Positions 30,078 to 62,406 of a DNA stretch of 64,000 bases are shown in pieces. Origin of the DNA: an uncultured Myxococcales bacterium (lineage in GTDB: Bacteria > Myxococcota_A > Polyangia > Fen-1088); contig CAYUFS010000015.1 of assembly GCA_964443975.1 (NCBI GenBank), positions 11,711-75,710 on the forward strand, written 5' to 3'. Within the stretch, counting starts at the first letter, position 1. Every line of letters begins with the position of its first letter. The notes under the pieces were generated by a model that searched no databases, was not told the DNA's origin, and saw only the letters and a list, made by a program, of their open reading frames with translations. The position numbers were made by a program, and so were the translations under genes.

Positions 30078-31909
30078 CGGTCATCCTTCCTGGTCACGAA
30101 GGTTGTGTGAGTCACGGACGTGAGGACGAGATCCTTCACGTGGCCTCCCCCTTGCGAAAAGGAGGCGCCCCAGTCCTTGGACACGCACTTGTCGGCGTCC
30201 TCCACGGGCCTCGCCTGGGCGAAGCTGAAGAAGTGCTCCGCCATGCAAGCCTCCAGCAGCTTGCTCTGCGAGAGCATGTCGGCCAGCTGGGCGGGCCCTT
30301 CGAACGGGCCGTCGACGTTCGAGCCATCCGCTGCCGCGGTGCTGGTCAGCTGACCGGTGGAATCGACCACCTGACCGTTCTCCATCGTCCGGAAGCGCCC
30401 GATGCCGTCCATCTGTTCGAATCCGAATCCGATCGGGTCGAACGAATTGTGGCAGGCAGCGCAAGACACGTCATCGAGGTGGATCTTCTCCAGCTTCTGC
30501 CGCGTCGTGGTCGTGGCGTCGTTGGAATCCAGCGGGTTGTTGTTGGCGATGCGACTGACCACGTCCGGTGGCGGAGCGGGGATGTACTGACAGAGCAGCT
30601 GCCGTCGCACGAGGAGACCACGTTCGACCGGCCCGGAGTGATTGGCCCCCGAATGGACGGTCAAGACCGCCGGCAACGACAGGATGCCCTTCCGGTGTTT
30701 CGGATCGAGGCCCGACTGGAGCAGGTCGGCGCCGTAAATCGACGCGAGCGCCGTGGGGACGTTCGTGCTGGTTCCCGTCATGAAGGAGGAGACGGTTCCG
30801 TCACCGCCATTGAGCTGGGTCTTTACGAACTGGTCGAACTCCTGCTGCATCGCGGTCAGGATGGTCGGCGTCAGCGTGGGGAACACGCTGGTGTCCTTCA
30901 GCGTGTCGGCGAGCGGGGTCATGTCCATCCAGCCGCCGATGAACCGCGCCAGCGTATCCTGGGCGGGGGCCGTCGCGAGCAGGCGTTGTGCCTGGGTCAA
31001 GATGTCGTTCGGGTTCGTGAAGCCCGTCGCCTGGGCGGCCGCCAGGAGGGTGTCGTCGGGGCGGCCTCCCGTCAGCAGCAGCGACAGCTGGGAGGCGATC
31101 TCGTACTGGGTCAACGCGATGGGCTTTCCCGGGTTCGCCGGAGCCGCCGGGTCGCCGAGCTCGCTGACGTACAAGGTGTTCGGAGACTGCAGCACCAGCT
31201 CGACGACCAGGCGCACCGAGGTGGCGTAGTCCTGGCCCATGTTCGCCACGGTGCTGATGCGGGTGAATTCGTCGTCGGCGAGCGGCCGGCCGTACGCCTT
31301 GCTGGCGAAGGAGCGAATGAAGGTCTGCAGGCACGTCGCCGAGCCGGCCGCCGTGGCGCAGGGAGCGAGGGTCGTAGGATTGGCCTGGCTGGCGAGGCTG
31401 GCGGCGAGATCGGAGGTGTCCTCCTGCATCGACGACAGCGACCAGGGGGCCTGGTTTCCTTGATTGTCGAAGCCGGTCACGAGGTTGTCCGCCGGGAGGG
31501 CGGTGGTGACCGCCGTGCGGGCCGTCGGTCCAAGGAGGTTGGCGACGACGTTCGTGTATTCCCGGATGGTCAAGGGCCTGAGACGGCGGCTGGTGAGACC
31601 GTCGCACGCGGCCACCGTGCCGGTGCCCGCGCCCGCGCCCGTGACGCCACCGCTGGCGCCGCCGCCGATGGTGAGACCGGCGCCGCCGCCGCCGCTATTC
31701 GCGCCGCCTGAGCCGCTCCCCCCGATCTTGGCACCTCCCGTGCCCCCCGAACCTGTCGTGGAGGTGTTACCCCCGGACGAGGTGGCGCCCGACCCAGCGC
31801 CGCTACCCGTGCCGGCCGCAGGCCCGCCCACGGTGCCCGTGCATCCCCCGAGCAGCAGCCCGAAGAGCGTGAAACCACGGAGCAAAGTACCTGTCGGGAG
31901 TGGTCTCAT
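30074..31909 (-). CDS. DUF1592/DUF1588-type PSD/PSCyt lipoprotein, pair 3
   Basis: MRPLPTGTLLRGFTLFGLLLGGC follows GAGGT. A GSG linker precedes RPLTIREYTNVVANLLGP and a C-terminal CAACHNSFDPIGFGFEQMDGIGRFRT block. The track ORF is 5' over-extended. Confidence 0.85.
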   Translation of the reverse strand: MRPLPTGTLLRGFTLFGLLLGGCTGTVGGPAAGTGSGAGSGATSSGGNTSTTGSGGTGGAKIGGSGSGGANSGGGGAGLTIGGGASGGVTGAGAGTGTVAACDGLTSRRLRPLTIREYTNVVANLLGPTARTAVTTALPADNLVTGFDNQGNQAPWSLSSMQEDTSDLAASLASQANPTTLAPCATAAGSATCLQTFIRSFASKAYGRPLADDEFTRISTVANMGQDYATSVRLVVELVLQSPNTLYVSELGDPAAPANPGKPIALTQYEIASQLSLLLTGGRPDDTLLAAAQATGFTNPNDILTQAQRLLATAPAQDTLARFIGGWMDMTPLADTLKDTSVFPTLTPTILTAMQQEFDQFVKTQLNGGDGTVSSFMTGTSTNVPTALASIYGADLLQSGLDPKHRKGILSLPAVLTVHSGANHSGPVERGLLVRRQLLCQYIPAPPPDVVSRIANNNPLDSNDATTTTRQKLEKIHLDDVSCAACHNSFDPIGFGFEQMDGIGRFRTMENGQVVDSTGQLTSTAAADGSNVDGPFEGPAQLADMLSQSKLLEACMAEHFFSFAQARPVEDADKCVSKDWGASFSQGGGHVKDLVLTSVTHTTFVTRKDDR

Positions 31910-32322
31910 TTGGTAACCTCGGCCCCAGGGGGAGCGTGGTGAGGGTTGTGACCGCCGTAACATTGGTCGCCACCAAATGGGGCCTGGGTCACGATTTCGG
32001 ATGCTAACGGTATTCGCGTGAATCTCTTTTCTCCGGAAGCTGCGCCGCGACGGGGGCGGGCCGCGTAACATCCTTGATTTGCTGGCTATTTATGCAGCGG
32101 GCGAACGGACGAGGGTGCGATGGAGGAGAAAGACCGACAGACGGCGTCGCAATCGACCTGGGAGAGCGGCGGTCGGCAGGCGGGTGCCAAGGGAGGGAGG
32201 GGCGGACAGGGGGACGCGACTTGTGGCGGGCGGGCCTCGCGGCTAAGGTCTCGGCTCGTTTCGGTCCGCTGATTCGTCTCGTCGTACCGAGATTCCTTCC
32301 CTCCTCGCTCCCAGGAGATCGC

Positions 32323-33642
32323 ATGGCCGGTGGAACCGCCCCCGTATCCAGGAACCCGTATGCCGCTCCGGCGACCGACGGCAAGAGCTATCTGGCGCCG
32401 CTGGCGGTGCTCACGAGCTTGTTCTTCATGTGGGGGTTCCTGACCTGCCTGAACGACATCATCATCCCGCACCTGAAGGCAGTCTTCGAGCTCAACTACG
32501 CGAAGGCGATGTTGATCCAGTTCGCGTTCTTCACCGCCTACTTCGTCGTGTCGCTGCCGGCCGGCGCGATCGTGAACAAGATCGGATACAAGAACGGCAT
32601 CATCATCGGCCTCGTGACTGCGGGGCTCGGTTGCCTCAGCTTTTATCCCGCCGCCGGAGCCCGGTCCTACGGCATGTTCCTGTTCGCGTTGTTCGTCCTG
32701 GCAGCGGGGATCACCGTGCTCCAGGTGGCGGCGAACCCGTTCGTGGCGGTGCTCGGAAAGCCCGAGACTGCGTCGAGTCGGTTGACGCTCACGCAGGCGA
32801 TCAACTCGCTGGGGACGACCATCGCGCCTCTCTTCGGGTCGTTCATCATCCTCTCGAACGTGGTCAAGACGCCCGCCGAGCTGAAGGGGCTCGCGCCCGC
32901 CGCGGTGGAGGCGTATCGCCAGACGGAGGCGGCTTCGGTTCAGGTTCCCTACGTCGGGCTGGCGGTAGCGTTGGTCGTGCTGGCCATCGCCATCGGGCTG
33001 TTCAAGCTGCCGAAGATAGACGCGTCGTCGGGCGGGGGTGAAGAGGCCGGCGGTGGGCACGAGGGCGCCAGCGCCTGGAGCTACCGGCCGCTGCTGCTGG
33101 GCGCGGTCGGAATCTTCGTCTACGTGGGCGCGGAGGTGGCGATCGGCAGCTTCCTGGTCAACTACTTCAAGGAGCCGAACATCGGGGGCCTCACGGAGGC
33201 CGAGGGTGCCCGCTACGTGTCGTTCTACTGGGGCGGCGCGATGGTCGGCCGATTCATCGGCAGCGTCACCTTGCGCATCTTCCGGCCGGGTAAGTTGCTC
33301 GCGGCGCACGCCCTGGTGGCGGCAGTCCTGGTGGTGACGACGATGCTCGCGTCGGGGCACGTGGCGATGTGGTCGATCATCGCGGTCGGCTTCTTCAATT
33401 CAATCATGTTCCCGACGATCTTCACGCTGGCCATCGATGGTCTCGGCAAGCACACCGGGCAAGGTTCCGGCATCCTGTGCATGGCCATCGTCGGCGGCGC
33501 GCTGATCCCCGTCGTTCAAGGGGCCCTGGCTGACACCGTTGGCATCCACCACTGCTTCATCATCCCCACGGTCTGCTACCTGTACATCGCATGGTACGCG
33601 GCGAAGTGGCGGCCACCGGTCCGGGCGACTTCGACGACGTAG
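32323..33642 (+). CDS. MFS transporter, L-fucose:H+ symporter (FucP/GluP) family
   Basis: 12-TM MFS with FucP-like N-terminal blocks (FFMWGFLTCLNDIIIPHLK). The start is the internal ATG MAGGTAPV; the track begins at a TTG far upstream. Confidence 0.8.
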   Translation: MAGGTAPVSRNPYAAPATDGKSYLAPLAVLTSLFFMWGFLTCLNDIIIPHLKAVFELNYAKAMLIQFAFFTAYFVVSLPAGAIVNKIGYKNGIIIGLVTAGLGCLSFYPAAGARSYGMFLFALFVLAAGITVLQVAANPFVAVLGKPETASSRLTLTQAINSLGTTIAPLFGSFIILSNVVKTPAELKGLAPAAVEAYRQTEAASVQVPYVGLAVALVVLAIAIGLFKLPKIDASSGGGEEAGGGHEGASAWSYRPLLLGAVGIFVYVGAEVAIGSFLVNYFKEPNIGGLTEAEGARYVSFYWGGAMVGRFIGSVTLRIFRPGKLLAAHALVAAVLVVTTMLASGHVAMWSIIAVGFFNSIMFPTIFTLAIDGLGKHTGQGSGILCMAIVGGALIPVVQGALADTVGIHHCFIIPTVCYLYIAWYAAKWRPPVRATSTT

Positions 33643-33666
33643 CGCCCCCGTCCTTCGTGGGGGTGG

Positions 33667-34200
33667 TCAGTTGTCGGGCGAGCCGCAGACGAGCCAGGCG
33701 AAGATCAGCTGGCGATCGATCTCGGGCAACGGCGCAGGTGCGTCGGCCGGGGGCATCGAGCAATCCTCGAGGTCGGAGATGATGAGCGACTTCCATGCGA
33801 AGACGTCCGCATACTCGTGCAGGGGCCAGAGCTCTCCAGGCAGCGCAGGATCGTGGCAGGTGTTGCAGGCGCGATCGAGGATGGGCAGAACATCGGCGGA
33901 GAAGCTTGGCGCAGGGCTGGGGCAGATGAGCGTCGCGGGCGGAGGGCAACCGACTGCGTTGGCGCTCGGATCGACGCTCGATCCGGCTGCCCCGCCCGCG
34001 GCCGCGCCACCTGCGCCGCCCGCGCCGCCCGGCCCACCGGCTCCGCTCACCGGCAGGGTGCTCGAGTTGACGCCGTTGTCGCAGCCGCCCGCCCCTATGG
34101 CGACCGCGAGCGACAGCAACGCGAGGAATGACCGGCCAGCCACCGCCGAACTATAGCAGCGCACGACGGGGCTCGGAGGGTGCGCCGGGTCACGCCCCAC
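33667..34200 (-). CDS. Small lipoprotein with PSCyt1-like mono-heme cytochrome c motif
   Basis: Signal and lipobox (AIGAGGC). FSADVLPILDRACNTCHD carries a CxxCH and parallels the C-domain of the 21799-22647 gene. It overlaps the murI 3' end by 11 nt, so an alternative start is possible. Confidence 0.5.
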   Translation of the reverse strand: MGRDPAHPPSPVVRCYSSAVAGRSFLALLSLAVAIGAGGCDNGVNSSTLPVSGAGGPGGAGGAGGAAAGGAAGSSVDPSANAVGCPPPATLICPSPAPSFSADVLPILDRACNTCHDPALPGELWPLHEYADVFAWKSLIISDLEDCSMPPADAPAPLPEIDRQLIFAWLVCGSPDN

Positions 34201-35095
34201 TCGTCTCCATGAACGGGTGCAGGCGAACCTTCTCGACGTCGATCTTCCCGCCAGCAGACCCAGGCGTGGGCGTCAGGATCGCCGCGCCACGGGCGGCAAA
34301 CCACACAGGATCGTCGGTGGTCGCGTAGCGCCTGAGTTGCCCACGCGAGAGGCGCCTCTCCATCGAAGGGTGCCGGTCCAACCAGTCGGCGAGACCGCGC
34401 GCGACGATCTCGCCCTGATTCAGGATCCGCACCTCCCGAGGAAGAGCGGCGCGGATCGCCGGCAGCAGCAAGGGGTAGTGCGTGCAGGCGAGCGCCAGGG
34501 ACGTCGGAGGCGAATCCGCAAGGTCCCCGGCCGTGAACAGCGGGTCGAGATACTTGTGAACGAAAAAATCCGTGCCTGCGCCCGCCAGCTCGCCGGCTTC
34601 GACGAGCGGCACCCACAACGGACAGGCGCGTTCGATCAGGCGCAGGCGCGGCGCCAGCTTCCCGAGCTCGATCCGGAACGAGCCGGACTCGATCGTTCCG
34701 GGCGTACCCAGGACCGCCACGGTGCCCTCGATCGCTGACGGGGGCGTGTGGCCGGGCAGCGCGCCTGGCGGAAGCTCGGCCAGGGCCTCGACGGTCGGCC
34801 GCACCACGCCGAGCACGCGGCGGTCGGGATGGAATCGCGGCAGGTGCCTGGTCTGCAGCGTGCGCAGCGCCCGCGCGGACGCGGTGTTGCAGGCGAGGAT
34901 GACCAGCGGGCAACCCGCCGCGAACAAGAACTCCACCGCCTCGCGGGTGAACTCGTAGACGGCGTCGGCGCTGCGCGTGCCGTACGGACAGCGCGCGCTG
35001 TCGCCCAGGTAGAGGTAGTCGTACTGCGGCAGCCGGCGGGTCAGCTCGCCCAGCACCGTGAGGCCACCGAAGCCAGAATCGAAGACGCCGATCAC
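34190..35095 (-). CDS. murI: Glutamate racemase
   Basis: [17 protein letters not shown] and CTHYP motifs. 301 aa. Confidence 0.85.
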
Positions 35096-35198
35096 CTCGT
35101 CACTCTACCAGCCCACGCCCTGCCACGGGCCGGCGGCGGTCAGGCCGAGGCCCGGCTTGCCAATGCGGGGCGCATGGGCAATGTTTCCGCCCGACATC

Positions 35199-36854
35199 AT
35201 GCGCAGCGATTCCATCAAGAAGGGCATCAATCGCGCGCCCGCGCGCGCGATGCTGAAGGCCACGGGACTGAACGACGCCGACCTCGACAAGCCGCTCGTG
35301 GCCGTCGCCAACACGTGGAGCGACGTCACGCCGTGCAACATGCACCTGCGGACACTCGGCGACAAGGTGAAGGAGGGAATCCGCGCCGCGGGCGGCACCC
35401 CGGTGGAGTTCAACACCATCGTGGTGTCCGACGGGATCTCGATGGGCACCGAGGGCATGCGCGCCTCGCTCGTGTCGCGCGAGGTGATCGCGGATTCGAT
35501 CGAGCTGGCGGTGCTCGGGGCCCTCTGCGACGGGGTCGTGGCCCTGTCCGGCTGCGACAAGACCATCCCGGGCACCGTGATGGCGCTGGCGCGCATGAAT
35601 CTGCCGTCGTTGATGCTGTACGGCGGTTCGATCATGCCGGGCCGGTTTCAGAACAAGGACGTCACCATCATGGACGTGTTCGAGGCGGTGGGCGCCTGCG
35701 CGGCCGGGCGCATGACGCAGGCGGATCTGCGCAGCCTGGAGGACGTCGCGTGTCCCGGGGCCGGGGCGTGCGGCGGCCAGTACACCGCGAACACGATGTC
35801 GATGGCCGTCGCGCTGCTCGGCCTGTCACCGATGGGGCTGAACGACATTCCGGCGCTGGATCCGCGCAAGGGCGACGCCGCCTTCCAGTGTGGCCAGCTG
35901 GTCATGAAGCTGCTGGCGGAAGATCTGCGCCCGAGCAAGCTGCTCACGCGGACGGCGTTCGAGAACGCCATCGCGGGCGTGGCGGCGAGCGCTGGCTCGA
36001 CGAACGCCGTGCTGCACCTGCTGGCGATCGCCCACGAGGCGGGCATCAAGCTCGGCATCGAAGACTTCGGCGCGATCGCCGAGAAGACCCCCATCATCGT
36101 CGACATGAAGCCGGGGGGACGTTTCGTGGCGTCGGATCTGGAGCGGGCGGGTGGGCAGCGGCTGATCGTGAAGCGGCTGTTCGAGATGGGCCACCTCGCG
36201 GACAGCCCCACGGTCAGTGGCAGGACGCTGAAGCAAGAGGGCGAGCTGGCGCGTGAGGCGCCCGGACAGGAGGTCGTGCGCCCGGCCGACAGGCCGCTCA
36301 GCCCGACGGGGGGGCTGGCCATCTTGAAGGGCTCGCTGGCGCCGGAAGGTTGCGTCGTGAAGCTGGCCGGCCACAAGCGCCGCCATCACAGCGGACCGGC
36401 GCGCGTCTACGACTCCGAGGAGCAGTGCTTCGCGGCCGTTCAGGCGCGCGAGGTGCAGCCGAACGACGTGGTGATCATTCGCTACGAGGGTCCCGTGGGG
36501 GGACCGGGCATGCGCGAGATGCTGGCCGTGACGGGCGCGCTCATCGGCCAGGGGCTGGGTGACAGCGTGGTGTTGTTGACGGACGGGCGCTTCTCCGGGG
36601 CGACGCACGGCTTCATGGGCGGGCACCTGGCGCCGGAGGCGGCGGTGGGCGGTCCCGTGGCGTTCGTGCGCGACGGCGACATCGTCACCTTGGACGTGGA
36701 CTCGGGCCGGATCGATGTCGCCGCGGACCTCGACGCGCGGCGCCCCGGCTGGAAGCCCCCGGCCCCGCGCTACCGCTACGGTGTGATGGCGAAGTATGCC
36801 GCTGGCGTGTCGTCCGCGTCGATCGGCGCAGTGACCACCCCCTCGAAGCTCTGA
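35199..36854 (+). CDS. ilvD: Dihydroxy-acid dehydratase
   Basis: The start [23 protein letters not shown] matches IlvD N-termini. CDKTIPG and GGSIMPG Fe-S/active-site motifs are present. Confidence 0.9.
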
Positions 36855-36870
36855 GGCTGGCTTTCGTCGC

Positions 36871-37551
36871 TCATCCACGAAGCGACGCCAATTCACGCAC
36901 CGTCCACATCACGCCGACGGCCGATGCCATCGTGCCTGCCAGCAGGCCGATCGCCGCGCGCACCCCCCGCTTCCGACCCAGGCGGGCGAGCGGCATCCCT
37001 GCGAGACCGGACAGGCCGGCCATGCCAGCCATCGAGCAGAGGCCGAATAGACCGACGTAGGCCAGCCGCAGTCCCGTCGAGGGCAGCCGTGCCGCGATCA
37101 TCGCCGTGAGCGCGCCGCTACCAGCGAGCCCGTGGACCAGACCGATCAGCAGCGATCGGCGGGCGAAGGTCGAGTGCGACTGGCGAAGATGGGGCTGTCC
37201 TGGTCCAGGAAACTGGATCGCGATCCTGTCGGGTCGACGTTCCAGGAAGACGCGGCCAATCGACCGGGCGCCGAGGCCCATCAACATCACGGCAACCGAG
37301 AGCTCGAACATGGTGCCGACCTTCGCGGGCAGGGTGGCTTGTGTCGCGGCCAGCATGCACGCGACCGCGAGGAGGCCAAGCGTATGCCCGAGTCCCCACG
37401 CCGCTCCCAGTCCAACGGCGGCGCCTGGATTCCGTTCCCCGGTCAGCACGGTGGACAACGCGGCGAGATGATCGGGCTCTAGCGCGTGACGCAACCCGAG
37501 CAGAGCCCCGAGCGACCACAACGAGAGGCCCCCGAATATCATCTCCGTCAT
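36871..37551 (-). CDS. NicO/HoxN-family (short form) nickel/cobalt transporter-like membrane protein
   Basis: 226 aa, about 6 TM. LGLRHALEPDHLAAL resembles the NiCoT signature RHAxDADHIAA. It is the last gene of the operon headed by the TonB-dependent receptor. Confidence 0.6.
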   Translation of the reverse strand: MTEMIFGGLSLWSLGALLGLRHALEPDHLAALSTVLTGERNPGAAVGLGAAWGLGHTLGLLAVACMLAATQATLPAKVGTMFELSVAVMLMGLGARSIGRVFLERRPDRIAIQFPGPGQPHLRQSHSTFARRSLLIGLVHGLAGSGALTAMIAARLPSTGLRLAYVGLFGLCSMAGMAGLSGLAGMPLARLGRKRGVRAAIGLLAGTMASAVGVMWTVRELASLRG

Positions 37552-38150
37552 GGCGACGCAGGAGCCTCGGTTCCAGCGTCCAGGCCTGCGTCACCGGGCG
37601 TGCCACCACCATCATCGGGACGGCGGACAAACGCACAGGTGGCGGAATCGTAGGTGGCGTTCGCGAAGTCACCGGGAAATATCCTGTCGACGATGAATTG
37701 CGCCGCGGCAGGGTCGAGCGGCTGGCCAGCCGCGCAATCGCCGCCGAAGGTGGCATCGGAGACGTCGATTGCCAGCAGGTCTCCCTTCCCTACCGACAGA
37801 GCTGCAACAGACCGCAACGCGATGAGCTGCGCCGGCGGCGTCATCGAATCAGGAAGCCATCCCGGCGCGATCAGCGCGTAGGCATAGTCGGTCGCGGGGA
37901 TCGTGCGCTCCACCTCGGAGGTCTCTCCCGGCGCGACCACGGTGCTGAACAGCGTGCTGGCCCACCAGGCCTTGTATACGACCGTGGCAGGCGTGCCCGG
38001 CTGAGCTGGAACTGGAAAGCCGTTCGACACCGTCGCGCGGGTGGGCGTGTCGTCGCAGGCCGACGCCGTCAGGGCCACCATCGCCCCCATGATGACCATC
38101 AGAGGGCCACCGCCTCGAAGCCCGACTGGGGTCCTCTTCACCTTGAGCAT
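37548..38150 (-). CDS. Lipoprotein of unknown function, co-transcribed with the nickel transporter
   Basis: Signal with lipobox (ALTASAC). It overlaps the NicO-like start by 4 nt and lies 14 nt after the receptor stop. Confidence 0.5.
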   Translation of the reverse strand: MLKVKRTPVGLRGGGPLMVIMGAMVALTASACDDTPTRATVSNGFPVPAQPGTPATVVYKAWWASTLFSTVVAPGETSEVERTIPATDYAYALIAPGWLPDSMTPPAQLIALRSVAALSVGKGDLLAIDVSDATFGGDCAAGQPLDPAAAQFIVDRIFPGDFANATYDSATCAFVRRPDDGGGTPGDAGLDAGTEAPASP

Positions 38151-38163
38151 CGTCGGCGTCCTT

Positions 38164-40770
38164 TCAGTCCAAGAACAACGTCGCCATCAACCGGATGGTG
38201 ATGGGGTACGCGGGGGTGTAGTCGACGTCCTCGCAGCCATAGAAGCGCCCGCCCCCCGCGGAGCCGTCCGGGGCCGGCGCCAGTCGCCCCTTGCTGCCGC
38301 AGCTGAAACCCGCCGGAACCGCGGAGCCGACGCCGGGCTCCGTCCGCAGCCGGCTGACCGTCGCGAACTGCGCCGAGCGAAAGTCGCTGTCCAGCAGGTT
38401 CTCGATGTCGAGCGCGATGTCGAACCAGCGGTGGCGATAGCCGAGGTGCATGTCGAACTGCGTGAAGCCGGGCGCGACCAGCACGCCGTCGTCGGACGCC
38501 GGCCGATCGCCGATGCCGTAAAAGCGGAGGCCGGCGCGTCCCACGCCGGGTCCGAGCGCGTGCCGCGCCGACAGACCGCCGGCCCAGGTCTGCTTGGGCG
38601 CGAGAGCCAGGCCTCCGCCGTTCTCCATGTCGGTGCTGAACTGGGAGTGCGTGAACGTCAGCGCCAGATCGGCCGCCAACCACGGCGTCACCTCGTAGCG
38701 CGTCTCCATCTCGATGCCGTGGCGGGTGGTGGGATCGCTCACGCCGGTGGTGCCGTCGTCTCCGTTCCAGACCGTCTCGCTGTCGAGGTCGAGCTTCCAC
38801 AGGGCGGCCGCCACGTCCCAGCGACCGAACAGCCGCGCTCGCGCGCCAACCTCTTCACCGATGGCGCGCGCCAGCGGCGTGACGGATGGCTGCGCAAACA
38901 CGCCGCGAACATCGTTCGAGTGAAACCCGCGGCCATAGTTGGCGTAGACGTCGAGGGCGGCGTTCTCTCCGTCGAGCGGCGTGACGATCAGGCTGGCCTT
39001 GGGGCTGAACTGGTGGCCTGCGTCGTTGCCGCTCTTCGGCGCCGTGGGGTCGACCGTGGTCAACCGATTGTCGACGGTGAACGACAGCAGGTCGGCCCGG
39101 CCGCCAACGTCCGCGCGAATCCATCGCGCCGGCGTGATCTCCTCGTTGAGATAGGCGCCGAGGAAGCTCTCATGGACATCGTTCGATCGAACCGCGCTCT
39201 GCTGCTGGCGGTGAGCCGTGTTCCACAGTTCCTCGTGAATGTCGTCGTTCCGCGCGTCCGCGCCCAGGGTCGTGTCGATGGTGACCGGGCCGCTGCGATG
39301 GAGAATGCGGTAGCTCACGCGCCCCCCGTAAAACGTGCGGCGATCGATCTGCTCGATCTCGTCGCCGTTGTCGGGATCGCGCAAGAACAGCGTGAAGTTG
39401 GAGAACAGGTTGAACCGGTAGGTGCCGGCGTAGGCCATCGCCTTCAGCTCGCTGGTCTCGGTGGGACGAAGGCGATACGAGGCAAATAGCTGATGGCGGG
39501 CCGTGTTTCCGCCCTCGTCGGGGTCGATGGAACCGAATCGGGAGATCAGCCCCTCCTCGACCGCCCGCGCCGGGATCTGCCCCGAACCGTGCCAGTTTCC
39601 GGCATAGCTCATCTCACCGATGCTGAGCGTCGAGGTGGGCGCGGACGACAACGTCAGCTTGTTGAAGAGCTTGTACTTGTCCCAGTTCTCCGGGTTGTCG
39701 AAGGGACCGTTCGAGCGCCCGACCTCGGCCGCGAAGGTGGCCTTGATGCCTTCGAGCTTGGGGCTGGCGATGGCCAGCGCCCGATATCCGGCCGACCCGT
39801 GGTTGGGCGAATCGACGAACCCGGCACCCACCGAGCTGTGCTCGAAGGCATCGCGCGACACCATGTTGACGGCGCCCGCCGTCGCGAAATCGCCCTGGCC
39901 GACGAAATAGGGTCCCTTCGTGATCTCCACGCGCTCCACGACCTCGGGGATGATGAAGTTCGTGTCGGCGAAGCCCTGGCCGTGCGCGTGCGACACCATG
40001 TTGATGGGAATGCCGTCGATGGACAGGGCCAGATCCGTGCCGTGGTCGGCGTCGAAGCCCCGCAAGAAGTACTGGTTCGCCTTGCCGCCCCCCGAGTGCT
40101 GCACCATCACCAGCCCGGGCGTGACGCGCAAGATGTCCTGCACGCTGCCGATCGGTCGCAGTTGAAAGTCTCGATCCTGCACCGAGAAAGAAGACGCGGC
40201 GCTGATGGGTCGCGTCCCGAGCACCAGCGTCGACTGGTTCGGGTTGGCCTGAACCACCTCGCGCGGAGGCGCCGCGGCGGGCAGTGGGGCCGGTGGCGGC
40301 GTGGACTGCGGCGCCGCCGGAGCCGGCGCCACCTCGTCCGGTGGCAGGTGGAACTCATAAGTGAACTGGACGGTCGACGGTATGGGCACGCCGCCCTTCT
40401 TCGCGGGCTCGAACGTGAACGTGCGGGCCGTCGCGGCCGCCGCTTCATCGAAGCCATGCCCGGCGCTGGAGGTCACCTTCACGTTGACGACCTGCCCGGC
40501 CGCCGAAATATCCAGCTGAAGGCCCACGTTGCCTTCCACCCGGTCCTTCAACGCCCCCTTGGGATAAGGGGCGTCGGGGTGCGTCTGCAGGGAAGGCGGC
40601 GTGATGGCGTCCTCCGTTGCGGAAGGCGGCAGGTTCGCTGACGTCGGATCTTCCGCCAGGGCTCGCCCCGGCCATATCGAACCGAGGGCGAGCGTGAGCG
40701 CGGCTACCGTCACGCGCCCGGAGAGAACAAGCGCTCCAGACGCACTCTGTTGGTTGGCACGTTTTATCAT
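38164..40770 (-). CDS. TonB-dependent outer-membrane receptor with N-terminal fused TonB C-terminal-like domain
   Basis: The N-terminal YPKGALKDRVEGNVGLQLDISAAGQVVNVKV...FEPAKKGGVPI is a TonB_C fold. A plug domain (DRDFQLRPIGSVQDILRVTPGL) and a beta-barrel ending in F follow. The start is either MIK (40770) or MSS (40800). Confidence 0.8.
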   Translation of the reverse strand: MIKRANQQSASGALVLSGRVTVAALTLALGSIWPGRALAEDPTSANLPPSATEDAITPPSLQTHPDAPYPKGALKDRVEGNVGLQLDISAAGQVVNVKVTSSAGHGFDEAAAATARTFTFEPAKKGGVPIPSTVQFTYEFHLPPDEVAPAPAAPQSTPPPAPLPAAAPPREVVQANPNQSTLVLGTRPISAASSFSVQDRDFQLRPIGSVQDILRVTPGLVMVQHSGGGKANQYFLRGFDADHGTDLALSIDGIPINMVSHAHGQGFADTNFIIPEVVERVEITKGPYFVGQGDFATAGAVNMVSRDAFEHSSVGAGFVDSPNHGSAGYRALAIASPKLEGIKATFAAEVGRSNGPFDNPENWDKYKLFNKLTLSSAPTSTLSIGEMSYAGNWHGSGQIPARAVEEGLISRFGSIDPDEGGNTARHQLFASYRLRPTETSELKAMAYAGTYRFNLFSNFTLFLRDPDNGDEIEQIDRRTFYGGRVSYRILHRSGPVTIDTTLGADARNDDIHEELWNTAHRQQQSAVRSNDVHESFLGAYLNEEITPARWIRADVGGRADLLSFTVDNRLTTVDPTAPKSGNDAGHQFSPKASLIVTPLDGENAALDVYANYGRGFHSNDVRGVFAQPSVTPLARAIGEEVGARARLFGRWDVAAALWKLDLDSETVWNGDDGTTGVSDPTTRHGIEMETRYEVTPWLAADLALTFTHSQFSTDMENGGGLALAPKQTWAGGLSARHALGPGVGRAGLRFYGIGDRPASDDGVLVAPGFTQFDMHLGYRHRWFDIALDIENLLDSDFRSAQFATVSRLRTEPGVGSAVPAGFSCGSKGRLAPAPDGSAGGGRFYGCEDVDYTPAYPITIRLMATLFLD

Positions 40771-40860
40771 AAACGTGCCGCTTGTAGCACGAGAGCTCAT
40801 TATCGTGTTACAAGTTTTTGCATCGCTCTTGTTACAAGTTCTTGGGCGGCTTGCGGGTAG
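40745..40860. promoter_or_regulatory. Candidate operator/promoter region: perfect inverted repeat GGCACGTTT-N7-AAACGTGCC plus tandem direct repeat TGTTACAAGTT x2
   Basis: The inverted repeat lies at about 40755-40779 and overlaps the MIK start codon. The direct repeats lie at about 40806-40846 in the AT-richest stretch of the window. The region sits between the divergent receptor operon and tonB, 1.3 kb from nikR. Confidence 0.4.
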
Positions 40861-40909
40861 TGAAGGGCGGCAGTAAATCCAGGGCCGAGATCAATGGCGC
40901 AGCAGAATC

Positions 40910-41746
40910 GTGGAGCTAGTTCTCTCAGATGAACGATCGGGACCGGTCGTGGCTCTAGGGCGCGGATCTGGACGGGCGCGCCGCGCCGGCCCGGCCGTCG
41001 CCATCGGGGTGTCCGTGTTCGCTCATGCGGCGTTCGCGGCGCTGGTGGGCGGAGGCTTCATGGTCTTTGGCGCCCGCGAGCCCAAGGGCGCTCCGTCGAT
41101 CGAGGTCGACGTGCTCGAGACCGTGGCGCTCGCGGCGGACATCCCCACGGCCCCGACCATCGGCAATCAGGTCACGTCGCCCGCGCAGGCTTCACCTCGG
41201 GCCCGCGCGCGGTCCACCCCCGTTCCGTCAGCCAACCGGAGGCCCGAGCCATCACCAGCGCCTCCCACGGCGCAGGCTTCCCCCGAGGTCGAGTCCCAAC
41301 CGAGCGCGGCGCCGGTGCGCTTCTCGATGAGCGCCGGCACCATCGCGGGTCGGGGTATTCCGGTGAGGAACAGTCGGGAGGGGGGCGCGTCTGTAGCCGG
41401 CCTTGTCATCGGGCCCGGCGGCCCTTCGAGGAGCGGCACGGACGGCGGGAGCGGCGAGATCTTTGGCGAGGACCGGATCAGCGTGCCCGCGCGACTGCTC
41501 TCCAGCGCCAGCGTCCCGTATCCGGCGGCCGCGCGACAGGCCGAGGTCGAAGCGGACGTGCAGGTTCAGCTCGTGGTCGGCGTCGACGGCTTTGTCGAGG
41601 ACGCCCGCGTCGTCAGACCTTGTGGCTACGGCCTCGACGAGGCCGCGCTGGCGGGCGTCCGAAACTTTCGGTTTTCTCCCGCGTTGCGCGACGGTCGACC
41701 GGTTCGTGTCCGGATGCGCTGGCCGGTTCAGTTTCGGCTTCGCTGA
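40910..41746 (+). CDS. tonB: TonB-family energy transducer
   Basis: An N-terminal TM helix, a Pro/Ala-rich spacer, and a C-terminal TonB_C domain (ADVQVQLVVGVDGFVEDARVVRPCGYGLDEAALAGVRNFRFSPA). Confidence 0.75.
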   Translation: MELVLSDERSGPVVALGRGSGRARRAGPAVAIGVSVFAHAAFAALVGGGFMVFGAREPKGAPSIEVDVLETVALAADIPTAPTIGNQVTSPAQASPRARARSTPVPSANRRPEPSPAPPTAQASPEVESQPSAAPVRFSMSAGTIAGRGIPVRNSREGGASVAGLVIGPGGPSRSGTDGGSGEIFGEDRISVPARLLSSASVPYPAAARQAEVEADVQVQLVVGVDGFVEDARVVRPCGYGLDEAALAGVRNFRFSPALRDGRPVRVRMRWPVQFRLR

Positions 41747-42173
41747 GGGCATGCAGGTGCTCGCGTCCGAGCATGTCGGCGACCAGCTCGACGCCGCCGT
41801 GCTTCACGCCACGCATCCCCAGAACACGGTTCGCGATCTCTTTCAGCCGATCCGATTTTCCCCTGATGATCACCACCTCCATGCACAGATCGTGGCTGAG
41901 GTGAACATGCAACGAAGCCCGCACCGCCTCGCCCAGGTCATGCTGTAGAGCGGTGAGTCGGTTGCTGAGATCGCGCACGTGGTGGTCGTAGACCAGCGTC
42001 AGCGCCGCCACGGAATCCACGCCAAGCGGAACCTTCGCACGCCCGATCTCGGCGCGCGCCAGATCGCGGAACAACTCGGAGCGTGTGCAGTCGCGCTCCG
42101 TGGCCAGGGCGTCGATTTCTTCCAACAGGTCGCCATTGATGGCCACACCGAAGCGGACGAGGTCGGCTTTCAT
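41613..42173 (-). CDS. nikR: Nickel-responsive regulator NikR (ribbon-helix-helix + metal-binding domain), with unusual C-terminal extension
   Basis: MKADLVRFGVAINGDLLEEIDAL is an RHH. SLHVHLSHDLCMEVVIIRG is the NikR H-x-H...C nickel site. The ORF continues about 50 aa past the usual end and overlaps the convergent tonB 3' end. Confidence 0.7.
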   Translation of the reverse strand: MKADLVRFGVAINGDLLEEIDALATERDCTRSELFRDLARAEIGRAKVPLGVDSVAALTLVYDHHVRDLSNRLTALQHDLGEAVRASLHVHLSHDLCMEVVIIRGKSDRLKEIANRVLGMRGVKHGGVELVADMLGREHLHALSEAETEPASASGHEPVDRRATREKTESFGRPPARPRRGRSHKV

Positions 42174-42262
42174 CGGCCGCACGATATCGCGCCGTTCACC
42201 CCGCCTCCACCCGGGCTCACCTCTGCGAAGGAAGGCGCCCGCTCGAAGCAGGGGCAGCCGCG

Positions 42263-42943
42263 TCAGAACTCGTGGCCGATGACCAGCCGGAACGGGAAGA
42301 TTCGGCCCAGGCCCGTGCGCGAGGTGGGGGCGTTGCTGGAATAGATCCAGTAGCGAAAGTCGATGGCGAAGGGCTGAACGTCGACGAACCAGTGGTTCCA
42401 GGTCGCCGCGAGCTCGAGGCCGAATCCGCTCTCCATGCGCAGGAATTTGCCCCCCGTCACGAACATGATCTCTCCGCGCACCAGCGTGAGGATGGGCTCG
42501 AGGTCCAGCCGGAATTTCGGCGAGTCGTCGAGGTGGATCGGATAGCCGAAGGAGATGAGGTCGATGCGAAATCCGCGCGCCGAATATCCCTCGGAGCTCT
42601 CCCATTGATACGCGAGGCCGAGGTGATCGCGGACGTACGAGCTGGAGGGCGAGACGAGGTCGAGTCCGAACGCGTTGGTCGCGCGGCTGTTGTTGACGAG
42701 GTCGCCGTCCTCCTCGATGACGTGGCTGTACGTGAGGCCGAGGCGAAAGGGGCTGTCCCCGCCAATGCGCGGCGTCGGGGCCGCGGTCGCCGGCGCAGGC
42801 TGGGGTGCGGGAGCGGGCGGAGTGCTCCCCGGGGCTACTTCTGTCCCGGGGGCCAGCTTCGGGTCACCGATATCCTGAGCGCTGACGAACCCGCCCGAAC
42901 AGATCGAGGCCAGCAGGGGAAGCACGGTCCGAAGCCGGCGCAT
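42263..42943 (-). CDS. Putative small outer-membrane beta-barrel protein (ends GHEF)
   Basis: Signal MRRLRTVLPLLASICSGGFVSAQD. Alternating aromatic strands. A C-terminal Phe. Confidence 0.5.
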   Translation of the reverse strand: MRRLRTVLPLLASICSGGFVSAQDIGDPKLAPGTEVAPGSTPPAPAPQPAPATAAPTPRIGGDSPFRLGLTYSHVIEEDGDLVNNSRATNAFGLDLVSPSSSYVRDHLGLAYQWESSEGYSARGFRIDLISFGYPIHLDDSPKFRLDLEPILTLVRGEIMFVTGGKFLRMESGFGLELAATWNHWFVDVQPFAIDFRYWIYSSNAPTSRTGLGRIFPFRLVIGHEF

Positions 42944-43037
42944 GACCCGGAATATTGCACGAGGTGACAGTTTCGCCACGCCTCCAGGAAGAAGGTGAAG
43001 AAGTGTGAAAGCGATTGACTTGCCGCGCCTCCCGCAC

Positions 43038-43064
43038 TATTTCGAAACTTCGAACTATCGAGGT
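43038..43064. promoter_or_regulatory. Candidate MarR operator: adjacent palindromes TTTCGAAA and TTCGAA
   Basis: The sequence tatTTCGAAacTTCGAActaTCGAggt lies about 80 nt upstream of the preferred MarR start. Confidence 0.3.
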
Positions 43065-43133
43065 CATGGACATTCCGTGGGAGAGCGCGCGCAAAACACT
43101 TCACCCATCTCGGTGGCCCCGCCGCACGCCGAG

Positions 43134-43568
43134 ATGGGGGTCCTCATCAGCGAGCTGATGAAGCACGTCAACCGGCGTTCGGCGGGCGACACGCTCGCGA
43201 TCCTGAACGACGCGGGTCTCACGTTACCCCAGCTCGTGACGTTGCACATCCTGGACCAGTGTGGCGTTCGGACGGTCTCGGCCATCGCCTCGTCGCTGCG
43301 CCTGTCAGCCGCGGCTACCAGCCACCTCGTCGATCGACTGGTCGTGGGTGGGTTCGTCGGACGCATCGAGGATCCGGATGACCGCCGGCAAAAGCGTGTC
43401 ACGCTCACCGCCAGTGGACGGCGGCTGGTCGATCGAGTACAGCGAGAGCGCACCCGCGAGATGACGGAGGCCGTCGCGGGGTTGTCAGCAGAGGTGTCTC
43501 GTCAATTCGGGCGGGTCTTGAGTCGGGTCATCGAGGAACTGTCGTCTTTGCCAAAGGGCGTGCCATGA
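43134..43568 (+). CDS. MarR-family transcriptional regulator
   Basis: Winged-helix block LTLPQLVTLHILDQCGVRTVSAIASSLRLSAAATSHLVDRLVVGGFVGRIEDPDDRRQKRVTLTASG. Its stop overlaps the next ATG (ATGA). Confidence 0.7.
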   Translation: MGVLISELMKHVNRRSAGDTLAILNDAGLTLPQLVTLHILDQCGVRTVSAIASSLRLSAAATSHLVDRLVVGGFVGRIEDPDDRRQKRVTLTASGRRLVDRVQRERTREMTEAVAGLSAEVSRQFGRVLSRVIEELSSLPKGVP

Positions 43569-44308
43569 AAACCATCGTGTCTGTCAAGAATGCCACCAAG
43601 GACTACGCGCTCGGAAAGGTCACGGTGCAGGCGCTCCGTGGGGTCGACCTCGAGGTGGCCGAGGGCGAGTTTCTGTCGATCGCCGGGCCCTCGGGCAGCG
43701 GGAAGACGACGCTCCTCAACCTGATCGGCTGCGTGGACACTCCCACCTCGGGAACGGTCGAGGTCGCCGGCAAGGACACGCGCAAGCTGTCCGAGCGTGA
43801 GCTGACCGAGCTGCGGCTCAACACCATCGGCTTCATCTTCCAGAGCTTCAATCTGGTGTCCGTATTGAGCGTGTTCCAGAACGTCGAGCTGCCGCTGTTG
43901 CTGCAGCGCAAGCTCAGCACGCCAGAGCGGTCGGCGCGCGTGCGCGCCCTGCTCGAGCGCGTCGGGCTGGGCGAGCACGCCCGCCATCGGCCGAGCGAGC
44001 TGTCCGGCGGACAGCGCCAGCGGGTCGCCATCGCGCGCGCGCTGGTGACGCGGCCACAGCTGGTGCTCGCCGACGAGCCGACGGCGAACCTCGACTCCGT
44101 CACGGGCCAGAACATCCTGGATCTCATGAAGGAGCTGAACCACACCGAGCGGACCACGTTCATCTTCTCGACCCACGATGCGCAGGTGATGGCGCACGCC
44201 AGCTCCGTCGTTCGCCTCGCCGACGGGAAGTTCGTGGACCGCCTGAGCGCCGCGGACGCGGTCGCGGCCGGGGTGAACCGCCGGCTGCCCACGGCGGGGG
44301 TCTCGTGA
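43565..44308 (+). CDS. ABC transporter ATP-binding protein (LolD/MacB-type)
   Basis: Walker A GPSGSGKTT, signature LSGGQRQRVAIARA, Walker B LVLADEPT. Confidence 0.9.
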   Translation: MKTIVSVKNATKDYALGKVTVQALRGVDLEVAEGEFLSIAGPSGSGKTTLLNLIGCVDTPTSGTVEVAGKDTRKLSERELTELRLNTIGFIFQSFNLVSVLSVFQNVELPLLLQRKLSTPERSARVRALLERVGLGEHARHRPSELSGGQRQRVAIARALVTRPQLVLADEPTANLDSVTGQNILDLMKELNHTERTTFIFSTHDAQVMAHASSVVRLADGKFVDRLSAADAVAAGVNRRLPTAGVS

Positions 44309-46464
44309 TGCAGGGGCAGATCGCCACGCTGGCGGTGATCGCGAAGATCGCGTTTCGCAACCTGTTCGCCAGCCGGCTGAAGACGATGATCGTGGGCGGC
44401 ATCATCCTGTTCGGGGCGATGCTGGTGGTGGTCGGCGGCTCCTTCGTCGACAGCATCGTCGCGGGGATGCGCCGGAGCATCGTGGGCAGCGTCGCCGGTC
44501 ACATCCAGGTGTACTCGTCGCAGTCGAAGGATCCGCTGGAGGTGATGGGCGGCTTCTCCCTCGAGGCCCCGGACCTGGCGGCGCTCGACGACTTCGCGAA
44601 GGTCAGGGAGGTGCTGCAGGCCATCCCGGGCGTGAAGTCAGTGGTGCCGATGGGTGTGAACGGCGCCATCGTCCCGTCCGGCAACACCATCGACGTGGCG
44701 CTGGCCCGCCTGCGCGACCTCGTGCGCCGGAAGCTGGCCGGGAAGGCGTCGCCCGCCGATCTGGCCGCGTACCAGGCCGAGAAGGGCCACGTCCACCAGA
44801 TCCTCTCGGTGCTTCAGGGCGACATCAAGAACGCCCGGCAGCTCCAGGACGAAAAGGCGTTGTCCCCGGAGGACGCCGCGGCGGTGACCAAGGCCGTATC
44901 GCCAGCGTTCTGGGCGAGCTTCGACAAGGATCCCCTCGACTCCCTCGAGTTTCTCGAGAATCGCATCGCGCCCCAGGCCATCGACGCCGACATGCTGTTC
45001 CTGCGCTACGTCGGCACGGACCCGGCGGTGTTCGCGCGCTCGTTCGATCGCATGAAGATCGTCGACGGGACGACGATCCCCGAGGGCAAGCGCGGCTTCC
45101 TGTTCGCGAAGTTCGTCTACGAGGATCAGGTCAAGCTGAAGACGGCGCGACGGCTGGACAAGATCAAGATCGCGCGCAACGAACGCGGCGAGAAGATCGC
45201 CCAGGACCCCGAGCTCAAGCGCTACGTCCGGGAGAACAGCAACCAGGTCCGCGAGATCCTGTTGCAGCTCGACGAGCCCAAGACTGCGCTCTTTCGCACG
45301 AAGCTTCAGGGCAAGCTGGGCAGCGCCGAGACCGACGTGGCGAAGCTGCTGTCGGCGTTCTTCCAGACCGATGACGCCAACTTCGACGATCGCTACCAGT
45401 TCTTCTACGCCGAGCTGGCGCCGGCGCTCGAGCTCTATCGCATTCGCATCGGGGACACCCTGACGATCAAGGCGTTCACGCGCAGCGGCTACGTGCAGTC
45501 CGTCAACGTTCACGTGTACGGGACCTTCGACTTCACGGGGCTCGAGAAGTCTCCGCAGGCCGGGGCGCTGAACCTGATGGACATGGTGTCGTTCCGGGAT
45601 CTCTACGGCTTCCTGACCGCCGAGCGGGAGAAGGAGATCGGCGAGCTCAAGAAGGCCATGAACGCCCGCGAGATCTCGCGGGACAACGCAGAGGCCGAGC
45701 TGTTCGGGACCAAGGAGGCGGCCGCGCCGGAGGCCACACCGGAGCCAGCGGGGCGCACCATCGTGGCCGAGGCGACGCCCGGCGTGCGGCCCCCCGAGGG
45801 GGAGGGCATCGCCAGCAAGCTCGCCCGCGAGGACCTGGTCAACCGCGTCTACAACCCGGACCAGCTCGAAGCGGGCGCCGTGCTGAACGCGGCCGTGATT
45901 CTCGCCGACGAGCGCAAGATTCCGGAGACCATCGTGGCCATCGAGGCCGCGGGCAAGCGCGCCGGACTACCGCTGAAGGCGATCACCTGGCAGGAGGCCT
46001 CTGGCTTCATCGGTCAACTGGTCATGGCGTTCCAGGCGGTGTTGATCGTTCTGGTGCTCATCATCTTCCTGGTGGCGCTGGTGATCATCAGCAACGCGCT
46101 CGTCATGGCGACCCTGCAGAGGGTGCAGGAGATCGGCACGCTGCGGGCGGTGGGCGCTCAGCGTCGTTTCATCCTGGCGATGCTGCTGCTCGAATCGCTC
46201 GTGGTCGCGGCGGTGTTCGGGGGGGCAGGCGTCATCCTCGGCGCGCTCGTCGTGTCTGTGATCGGAAAGGTCGGGATCCCCGCGCCCAACGACGTCTCGT
46301 ACTTCTTCTTTTCGGGGCCACGCCTGCACTTGACGCTGGGGACCTCGAACTTGATCAGCGCCCTGGTCATCGTCTTCGTGGTGAGCGGCCTGTCGAGCCT
46401 CTACCCGGCGTGGCTCGCCATGCGCGTGAATCCCCGTCAGGCCATGCAAGCGGAAGAGGGATGA
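44305..46464 (+). CDS. FtsX-family ABC permease with very large (~520-aa) periplasmic domain
   Basis: GTG start overlapping the upstream TGA. TM1 near aa 25-48. The next TM helices appear only after about aa 575. The C-terminal FtsX 4-TM core has the signature LRAVGA. Confidence 0.8.
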   Translation: MMQGQIATLAVIAKIAFRNLFASRLKTMIVGGIILFGAMLVVVGGSFVDSIVAGMRRSIVGSVAGHIQVYSSQSKDPLEVMGGFSLEAPDLAALDDFAKVREVLQAIPGVKSVVPMGVNGAIVPSGNTIDVALARLRDLVRRKLAGKASPADLAAYQAEKGHVHQILSVLQGDIKNARQLQDEKALSPEDAAAVTKAVSPAFWASFDKDPLDSLEFLENRIAPQAIDADMLFLRYVGTDPAVFARSFDRMKIVDGTTIPEGKRGFLFAKFVYEDQVKLKTARRLDKIKIARNERGEKIAQDPELKRYVRENSNQVREILLQLDEPKTALFRTKLQGKLGSAETDVAKLLSAFFQTDDANFDDRYQFFYAELAPALELYRIRIGDTLTIKAFTRSGYVQSVNVHVYGTFDFTGLEKSPQAGALNLMDMVSFRDLYGFLTAEREKEIGELKKAMNAREISRDNAEAELFGTKEAAAPEATPEPAGRTIVAEATPGVRPPEGEGIASKLAREDLVNRVYNPDQLEAGAVLNAAVILADERKIPETIVAIEAAGKRAGLPLKAITWQEASGFIGQLVMAFQAVLIVLVLIIFLVALVIISNALVMATLQRVQEIGTLRAVGAQRRFILAMLLLESLVVAAVFGGAGVILGALVVSVIGKVGIPAPNDVSYFFFSGPRLHLTLGTSNLISALVIVFVVSGLSSLYPAWLAMRVNPRQAMQAEEG

Positions 46465-59175: not shown

Positions 59176-59930
59176 GTGAGCGACCAGCGACCGGCACGAG
59201 CGCGTACTCCTACGGAGCCGACATCGCCGCGCCCTCGCTGTTGGCGCCCGATGCCTTCGTCGAGCGCCTGCGCAGCGAGGGGGCGTCCCGCTACCACGAT
59301 CAGCATCCGTTCCACCTGGCGATGCACGAGGGCCGGCTGTCGCGCGCCGATCTACAGCGCTGGGTGCTGAATCGTTACTACTATCAAACGCGGATCCCCA
59401 TCAAGGACGCGCTGATCCTCTCGAAGAGCGAGGACCCCGCGTTTCGGCGCGCCTGGATTCGAAGGATTCACGATCACGACGGCGTGGCGGAAGGCGAGGG
59501 CGGCCTCGCCGAGTGGCTTCGGTTGGCCGTGGCGGTCGGGCTGGACCCCGATGACGTGGAGAGCTGTCGCCTGGTGCATCCGGGCGTTCGCTTCGCTTGC
59601 GACACGTACGTCACGCTGGTCCGCGACAGCCGCCTGGTGGTCGCGGTCGCGTCGTCCCTGACGGAGTTCTTCGCGCCCGACCTGATGGCGCGCCGGATCG
59701 AGGCATGGGAGCGGCACTATCCGTTCGTCGACGCGGCGGGGCTGGCGTACTTCCGGGCCCGCGTGCCGCGGGCGCGCCGCGACTCGGAGGAGGCGGTGGC
59801 GTTCGTGGTGGCCGGGGCGCACACGCGCGAGGTGCAGGACGCGTGCGTGGCCGCGCTGGTGCGCAAGACCCAGATCCTGTGGCACCTGCTCGATTGTGTC
59901 GCCGCCGGGGCCGGCGGCGGCGGGCCGTGA
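59172..59930 (+). CDS. pqqC: Pyrroloquinoline-quinone synthase PqqC
   Basis: HPFHLAMHEGRLSRADLQRWVLNRYYYQTRIPIKDALILSKSEDP is the PqqC signature. A probable TTG start overlaps the pqqB stop. The track ORF 58869..59930 is over-extended. Confidence 0.85.
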   Translation: MSERPATGTSAYSYGADIAAPSLLAPDAFVERLRSEGASRYHDQHPFHLAMHEGRLSRADLQRWVLNRYYYQTRIPIKDALILSKSEDPAFRRAWIRRIHDHDGVAEGEGGLAEWLRLAVAVGLDPDDVESCRLVHPGVRFACDTYVTLVRDSRLVVAVASSLTEFFAPDLMARRIEAWERHYPFVDAAGLAYFRARVPRARRDSEEAVAFVVAGAHTREVQDACVAALVRKTQILWHLLDCVAAGAGGGGP

Positions 59931-61387: not shown

Positions 61388-61418
61388 GCCGCGCGTTCGT
61401 GGTCGTGGTGCCTCGGGC

Positions 61419-62252: not shown

Positions 62253-62406
62253 GTGCCACCTCGCGCTCTCGGTCTAGACCGTTCAACCAGTCGAAATCTA
62301 GACGAACGAGGCAAGTTCTCAAGGGGTGGGTCCGCCGTCTGCGACCATGGTGGCTCTTTAGGCTCGTGTGGTGCCTCCTACCTCGTGGACGCCCGCGCTG
62401 ACCGCC

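Follow-up and report, generated by a model that had tools for sequence, protein, structure and literature searches.

We have analysed a 64 kb stretch of DNA from an uncultured soil myxobacterium (hereafter the window), in which five adjacent genes, nikR, tonB and an operon for a TonB-dependent receptor, a lipoprotein and an inner-membrane permease, probably constitute a nickel-repressed, TonB-energised nickel import system. The receptor gene (positions 38164–40770) heads the operon on the minus strand and is followed by the genes for the lipoprotein (37548–38150) and the permease (36871–37551), with the ATG of the permease gene overlapping the stop codon of the lipoprotein gene (ATGA). The tonB gene (40910–41746, plus strand) is divergent from this operon, and nikR (41613–42173, minus strand) is convergent with tonB. 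These two genes overlap by 134 nt, so that the last 134 nt of the nikR coding sequence are antisense to the 3′ end of tonB. A preliminary description of the locus had listed the same five open reading frames (ORFs); their coordinates and strands are borne out by the ORFs present in the window and by matching genes in independent public gene calls (JGI 3300031250, Ga0265331_10000083, and several ENA assemblies, all of the same metagenome contig). The flanking genes are unrelated: a dihydroxy-acid/6-phosphogluconate dehydratase gene (ilvD/edd) borders the locus at one end, and genes for a MarR regulator and a MacB-type ABC exporter at the other. The association of the module genes is far beyond chance. 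The module recurs, in rearranged form, in more than 20 independent Myxococcota loci, and the palindrome described below as the predicted NikR operator occurs once in 64 kb.

The NikR regulator and its predicted operator

The nikR product is a protein of 186 residues consisting of a ribbon-helix-helix domain, a NikR_C domain and a basic C-terminal tail of 52 residues. Both domains score above their Pfam cutoffs (NikR_C, 95.9 bits against 22; RHH_1, 24.5 bits against 20.5), and the protein as a whole lies above the NCBIfam equivalog cutoff (NF003381, 122 bits against 105). His78, His89, His91 and Cys97 align with the nickel-site residues His76, His87, His89 and Cys95 of E. coli NikR (phmmer alignment with PDB 1q5v). 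The gene had been described beforehand as encoding a NikR-type regulator with a conserved H-x-H...C site, and the equivalog score and the retention of all four nickel-site residues agree with that assignment.

The receptor–tonB intergenic region contains a perfect 28-bp palindrome, GTAGCACGA-N10-TCGTGTTAC (40784–40811; inverted repeat I1), which is the predicted primary NikR operator. It has zero mismatches and is the sole match in the 64 kb even when three mismatches are allowed, with 0.07 matches expected. It has the 28-bp layout of the E. coli nikA operator. The ATG of the receptor gene, at 40770, lies 14 nt downstream of the end of the palindrome. Because the alternative upstream ATG at 40800 falls within the operator, the receptor start is placed at 40770, as it had been in the preliminary description. 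The operator matches the "reversed" NikR signal of delta-proteobacteria, GTAACAC-N13/14-GTGTTAC, reported for D. psychrophila and D. vulgaris nikK (Rodionov 2004, PMC545781). Both are inverted repeats of 27–28 bp with GTGTTAC/GTAACAC half-sites in the reversed arrangement, although one half-site in the window reads GTAGCAC and the targets in that study are the ABC-type transporters nikMNQO/nikKMLQO. A NikR site had been anticipated in the interval 40745–40860. The palindrome found there, its conservation in related loci and its match to the published signal all argue for NikR control of the locus.

NikR orthologues of the same clade carry C-terminal extensions of 25–85 residues that are strongly His-rich and end in a basic segment (L007 2983–3645, L011, L024 and L029, where L numbers designate related loci); examples are HVHLHAHDHQGGHAHAHHEH or a run of (DH)n. 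The 52-residue tail of the window protein (41613–41783, minus strand) retains the basic end and contains four histidines only. No description of such His-rich NikR tails was found in searchable papers. The tails could give the clade an additional level at which nickel is buffered or sensed.

Conservation of the module and of the NikR boxes

The receptor–lipoprotein pair is present in approximately 22 related loci, in which the receptors are 64–73% identical. A tonB gene is divergent from the receptor gene in approximately 12 of these; nikR lies within 8 kb in 9–10 and a permease gene in 8–9, and the order of the module genes differs among loci. We built a position weight matrix (PWM) from the boxes found and used it, with a threshold score of ≥18, to scan approximately 0.5 Mb of related loci. 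Of the 20 loci that contain the region upstream of the receptor gene, 17 have a box there at or above the threshold. Separate boxes precede permease genes that are unlinked to the receptor in L009, L010 and L015, with a weaker one in L007, and in L019 tonB has its own upstream box. Every site scoring ≥18 in the scan either adjoins a module gene or lies between two of them. Such a distribution would be expected if the NikR regulon comprised the receptor operon, the permease gene and tonB.

A second, weaker NikR-like palindrome in the window, GGCACGTTT-N6-AAACGTGCC (40756–40779, within the feature at 40754–40781; inverted repeat I3), has perfect 9-nt arms and a PWM score of 18.0. It straddles the receptor start codon and is offset by 30 bp from the primary box; tandem boxes at an offset of 31–32 bp also occur in L018, L022 and L037. 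Its conservation may be a coding effect, since the downstream arm also encodes Lys-Arg-Ala. Toward tonB, at a distance of 24 nt, the right arm of the operator recurs as an 18-nt direct repeat (40827–40844; repeat family D1, 89% identity), which could represent either a third half-site or an element of the tonB promoter. The same repeat can also pair with the left arm of the operator across 32 nt.

Two further arrangements were observed among the related loci. In L007 (9023–9970, 2515–2976), and likewise in L008, a CDF-type cation-efflux gene is the first or second gene after that for the lipoprotein, and nikR is preceded by a gene for a DUF2269 membrane protein; these two loci may combine uptake genes with efflux genes. 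In L009 (148–3226), IS66-family transposase genes lie directly upstream of an N-terminally truncated receptor gene (654 residues, lacking TonB_C). This arrangement resembles an operon-disrupting insertion, and the unlinked permease gene of that locus still has a NikR-like box.

The TonB-dependent receptor

The receptor has 868 residues. A TonB_C-like domain at its N-terminus (40345–40569, minus strand; Pfam TonB_C, 58.7 bits) shares 36% identity with the TonB_C domain of the adjacent tonB product and precedes a Pro/Ala linker and a candidate TonB box. This candidate, ASSFSVQ, aligns with ASEMTVS of the receptor encoded on pHCG3 of Oligotropha (Afipia) carboxidovorans. The plug domain follows (39871–40194, minus strand; Pfam Plug, 62.4 bits), with the motif QHSGxGKANQYFLRGFxxDHGTD...HxHGQG. 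The barrel is indicated by a match of TIGR01783 to residues 566–812, by the presence of PF00593 in orthologues and by a full-length alignment to the pHCG3 receptor. By its plug-then-barrel order, the protein is assigned to the TonB-dependent transporters. Three histidines of the plug (His225, His243 and His263) and one of the barrel (in GFHSND) are invariant across Myxococcota, Alpha- and Betaproteobacteria and Bacteroidota (alignment A3), and are candidate metal ligands.

In a translated search of plasmid records, the plug and barrel are 33–38% identical (E 1e-93 to 1e-109) to receptors from proteobacteria and Bacteroidota. The pHCG3 receptor, with 32% identity over the plug and barrel (E 4e-107), is encoded directly beside nikR, downstream of hypFCDEB. 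Other homologues are found beside hoxN (Cupriavidus pHG1), beside hoxN and NiFe-hydrogenase genes (Bradyrhizobium), and beside HupE/UreJ (Hymenobacter). Later surveys list pHCG3_081, Bll6948, Daro_3944 and RPA_4757 as predicted Ni/Co receptors and place FrpB4 of Helicobacter in another, haem-type cluster. Members of this Ni/Co family are recognised by a NikR site upstream or by linkage to nickel transporter or enzyme genes; the window receptor has a predicted NikR site upstream of its gene and a predicted nickel permease in its operon. We therefore place it, from similarity, among the predicted Ni/Co receptors of Rodionov and Schauer and not with the FrpB4 type. The assignment follows from its similarity to the pHCG3 receptor, itself listed in the Ni/Co cluster.

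The inner-membrane permease

The permease has 226 residues, with the signature H-x4-D-H (RHALEPDHLAA) in its first hydrophobic segment. Four hydrophobic segments exceed the hydropathy threshold and two weaker ones were read by eye, giving a total of approximately six. The family is large, with more than 4,300 matches, many of them approximately 50% identical to the window protein. All 21 of the family members aligned match Pfam NicO at E ≤ 0.01 (best 2.4e-10), and RHALEPDH, WGLGHT and VHGLAGSGA are invariant among them. Source databases name the homologues "high-affinity nickel-transport protein", "UreH" or "RcnA"; one that is 49% identical to the permease is called "Nickel transporter UreH" by its source. 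The closest relative (61% identity) is encoded in a metagenome-assembled genome (MAG) of Polyangia, in a nikR...receptor-permease cluster that lacks the lipoprotein gene.

The permease had previously been called NicO/HoxN-like. The RHALEPDHLAA signature stands and membership in the NicO superfamily is probable, whereas the likeness to HoxN does not extend to the NiCoT transporters (HoxN/NixA), as the protein falls far below the corresponding models (TIGR00802, 21.8 bits against 333; NicT, 18.7 bits against 450). Two features, the H-x4-D-H signature within an early transmembrane segment and a GHT/GHS motif, are common to this protein and to UreH, NiCoTs and RcnA. However, NiCoTs have eight segments and 330–380 residues, and RcnA has a His-rich loop that is absent from the window protein. 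It is best described, on the basis of these comparisons, as a short, approximately six-segment, UreH-like protein of the NicO superfamily.

A 232-residue protein encoded between hypB and nikR on pHCG3 shares 35% identity (E 5e-30) with the permease. RefSeq annotates the gene at this place (pHCG3 76164–76862; L038 5296–5994) as a "sulfite exporter TauE/SafE family protein". Its product carries the nickel-type signature HHALEADH, and the RefSeq annotation is probably wrong.

The dedicated TonB and the lipoprotein

The tonB product comprises an N-terminal membrane anchor with an S-x3-H motif, a Pro-rich spacer and a C-terminal TonB_C domain (Pfam, 61.4 bits). The public annotation places the start at 41060. 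Since the anchor motif (SVFAH) is encoded upstream of this position, the credible start must be that of the long form at 40910, as in the preliminary description, or a GTG at 40946. The public annotation is probably 38–50 codons too short.

The lipoprotein has 200 residues and belongs to an uncharacterised family. A signal peptide with a hydrophobic segment at residues 9–27 is followed by a lipobox cysteine, Cys32, which is invariant in 27 sequences; by this organisation the protein is classed as a bacterial lipoprotein. Cys139 and Cys172 are also invariant in the alignment, which contains no conserved histidine. AlphaFold2 confidently predicts a β-sandwich (mean predicted local distance difference test score 83.6). 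A Pfam search of the lipoprotein and of its distant or longer relatives gave no match, apart from unrelated DUF4379 domains. The family is rare, with 27 matches in 5.8 billion proteins and 158 clusters in 1.84 billion cluster representatives. A scan of one genome per species located it at 25 loci, all in Myxococcota MAGs (Polyangiaceae, Polyangiales, Labilithrix and Kofleriaceae).

Four distant homologues (35–42% identity) are not adjacent to a nickel-type receptor gene, and each is followed directly by a gene for an OprB-family porin (L027 8033–9943, L031 927–2417, L033 8507–9967 and L034 7815–9977). An apparent lipoprotein–OprB fusion in L034 was rejected as a frameshift or long-ORF artefact, as the first half of the domain alone is in frame. 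The proximity of the distant homologues to OprB genes suggests that the family is an accessory, or general partner, of outer-membrane channels and not a nickel-specific binding protein. The lipoprotein is not obligatory, given the Polyangia nikR...receptor-permease cluster from which it is missing. For the window protein, we infer a role in the nickel system. We offer only tentatively, and with more doubt than belief, the proposal that these lipoproteins are a new Myxococcota-restricted family of channel partners, serving either a nickel receptor or OprB, which would here capture or hand over nickel or a nickel chelate and which, alongside the private TonB and a TonB_C domain fused in cis, would make the receptor complex unlike the TonB-dependent nickel systems studied so far.

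Proposed mechanism and alternative interpretations

Homology and the logic of the regulation lead us to infer nickel as the substrate, import as the direction and repression, as opposed to activation, as the mode of control. Under nickel scarcity, apo-NikR would leave the operator free, so that the receptor–lipoprotein–permease operon, and probably also the divergent tonB, would be transcribed. The outer-membrane receptor would bind nickel, either free or chelated, and the dedicated TonB, powered by ExbB/ExbD from another locus, would open the plug and admit nickel into the periplasm. The lipoprotein would act as an accessory of this outer-membrane channel, and the short NicO-type permease would move Ni2+ across the inner membrane into the cytoplasm. 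When nickel is replete, a Ni-NikR tetramer would occupy the 28-bp palindrome, and possibly also the second palindrome over the ATG, blocking expression. Nickel import had been proposed in the preliminary description; in its favour, the receptor and the permease both have homologues encoded beside nikR, hyp and hoxN in proteobacteria.

Several observations weigh against this interpretation. A search of the approximately 40 ORFs of the window revealed neither genes for nickel enzymes nor exbBD. No recognisable NikR box is present in the orthologous loci L012, L013 and L030, and a scan of 36700–43100 placed no sigma-70-type promoter. The permease itself scores below the Pfam NicO cutoff (PF03824, 24.5 bits against 27.7) and matches the model over its first 74 residues only. 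Some of its relatives in other phyla have RcnA-like His-rich loops, and some are encoded beside DsbD_N genes, where a link to nickel is not visible. All members of the clade are known as MAGs or metagenome contigs. Finally, a receptor homologue in Methylorubrum adjoins cob genes (cobM/cbiE), so that cobalt is a possible substrate.

The Methylorubrum locus speaks for the idea that the system transports cobalt, or does not discriminate between nickel and cobalt, and that NikR serves as a sensor only. The same idea is favoured by the label "Nickel, Cobalt" given to the receptor cluster in the published survey, and by a report in the literature of a UreH member beside B12 genes. We nevertheless consider it improbable, since the regulator is a NikR with intact nickel-site residues and the closest contexts that can be characterised are nikR/hyp and hoxN/hydrogenase. 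Moreover, an Rfam search of 33000–46000 detected no riboswitch, including those of the cobalamin and NiCo types, and the window contains no cob/cbi genes.

If the NicO-type protein were instead an RcnA-like exporter, the locus would serve nickel detoxification or homeostasis and NikR would be an activator. The RcnA label that JGI gives to some permease homologues, the His-rich central loops of certain relatives and the CDF efflux gene adjoining the module in L007 and L008 are in keeping with this. However, the permease gene, with its start overlapping the lipoprotein stop, appears translationally coupled within an operon headed by a TonB-dependent receptor, that is, by an importer, an arrangement that we count in favour of import. 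Control is apparently by NikR, with no gene for an RcnR/CsoR-type regulator nearby, and the loop of the window permease has two histidines only, short of what characterises the RcnA type. The pHCG3 homologue, between hypB and nikR, is found in a context of nickel demand. Export is thus highly improbable.

It is scarcely credible that the receptor takes up an iron-siderophore of the myxochelin type and adjoins nikR by coincidence: its best NCBIfam match is indeed the myxochelin receptor MxcH (NF038079), but the score of 113.8 bits is far under the cutoff of 925 and comes from residues 68–326, the N-terminal ∼250 residues of TonB_C and plug only, for which reason orthology with MxcH was rejected, while the NikR box is kept upstream of the receptor in 17 loci and the full-length homologues are nickel- or cobalt-linked. 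On this evidence, the cobalt-only, efflux and iron-siderophore interpretations were all set aside in favour of nickel import.

Comparison with known systems

NikR-regulated, TonB-dependent nickel uptake with a secondary permease is already known, from experiments in Helicobacter and from predictions made for proteobacteria between 2004 and 2008. To our knowledge, Helicobacter is the only genus in which experiments have addressed how nickel crosses the outer membrane, and the wider family of receptors predicted from NikR sites is uncharacterised. The preliminary description had compared the window locus to FrpB4/NikR of Helicobacter and had known of no such system described in Myxococcota. The comparison holds for the general logic, as FrpB4/FecA3-NikR and NikH of H. 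mustelae also mediate TonB-dependent, NikR-repressed import of nickel through the outer membrane, and a dedicated TonB paralogue is likewise reported in H. mustelae. However, the inner-membrane partners in Helicobacter are NixA or an ABC system, and the H. pylori NikR operator is AT-rich, unlike that of the window. FrpB4 falls in a haem-type cluster and not in the Ni/Co cluster with pHCG3_081. The closest paradigm is instead the Ni/Co receptor family of Rodionov and Schauer. As for the lineage, searchable papers contain nothing on NikR in myxobacteria, although the kind of system was predicted in 2004–2008.

The proteobacterial Ni/Co receptors (Rodionov 2006, Schauer 2008), exemplified by pHCG3_081, Bll6948, Daro_3944 and RPA_4757, share with the window locus a homologous receptor, at 32–38% identity over plug and barrel, and the combination of a nickel-repressed outer-membrane gate with a secondary permease. 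Those loci are located beside genes for nickel enzymes, whereas the window locus is situated between ilvD/edd and marR. The pHCG3 locus shares further features, namely a homologous short NicO-type permease, an adjacent nikR and a NikR palindrome in the intergenic region. It differs in that its receptor lacks an N-terminal TonB_C domain, in that it contains neither a lipoprotein homologue nor a dedicated tonB, and in that its operator is of the enterobacterial type (GTATGA-N16-TCATAT). The order TonB_C, plug and barrel is also that of the MxcH-type myxobacterial receptors, but the barrel of the window receptor is related to those of the Ni/Co receptors. Four features of the window locus are new: its lineage, the fusion of a TonB_C domain in cis to a receptor of the nickel type, a dedicated tonB that belongs to the regulon, and the uncharacterised lipoprotein family.

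Other features of the window

Upstream of nikR, at a distance of 89 nt and in the same orientation, a gene at 42263–42943 (minus strand) encodes a 226-residue protein that resembles a small outer-membrane β-barrel, with a signal peptide, a linker rich in Pro and Ala and the C-terminus ...GHEF. It has no Pfam match. As it has neither a NikR box nor a homologue in the related loci, it is left out of the system. Elsewhere in the 64 kb, three separate pairs of genes encode DUF1592/DUF1588/DUF1585 (PSD/PSCyt) and DUF1552 (HXXSHH) proteins (1895–5340, 10016–13511 and 28641–32071). At 59597–63849, the gene for a radical SAM/SPASM protein that carries a PqqD domain at its N-terminus adjoins that for an M16 peptidase, a layout typical of a peptide-modification cluster resembling those for ribosomally synthesised and post-translationally modified peptides.

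Implications

The locus leaves the understanding of nickel regulation unchanged. It extends the predicted Ni/Co receptor family to uncultured Polyangia-type Myxococcota and supplies a sharply defined predicted operator that is conserved across 17 loci. The plug histidines invariant across phyla provide candidate metal ligands for this family. Three testable parts, the fused TonB_C domain, the dedicated TonB and a lipoprotein of an uncharacterised family, are added to what would be a nickel-repressed route across the outer membrane.

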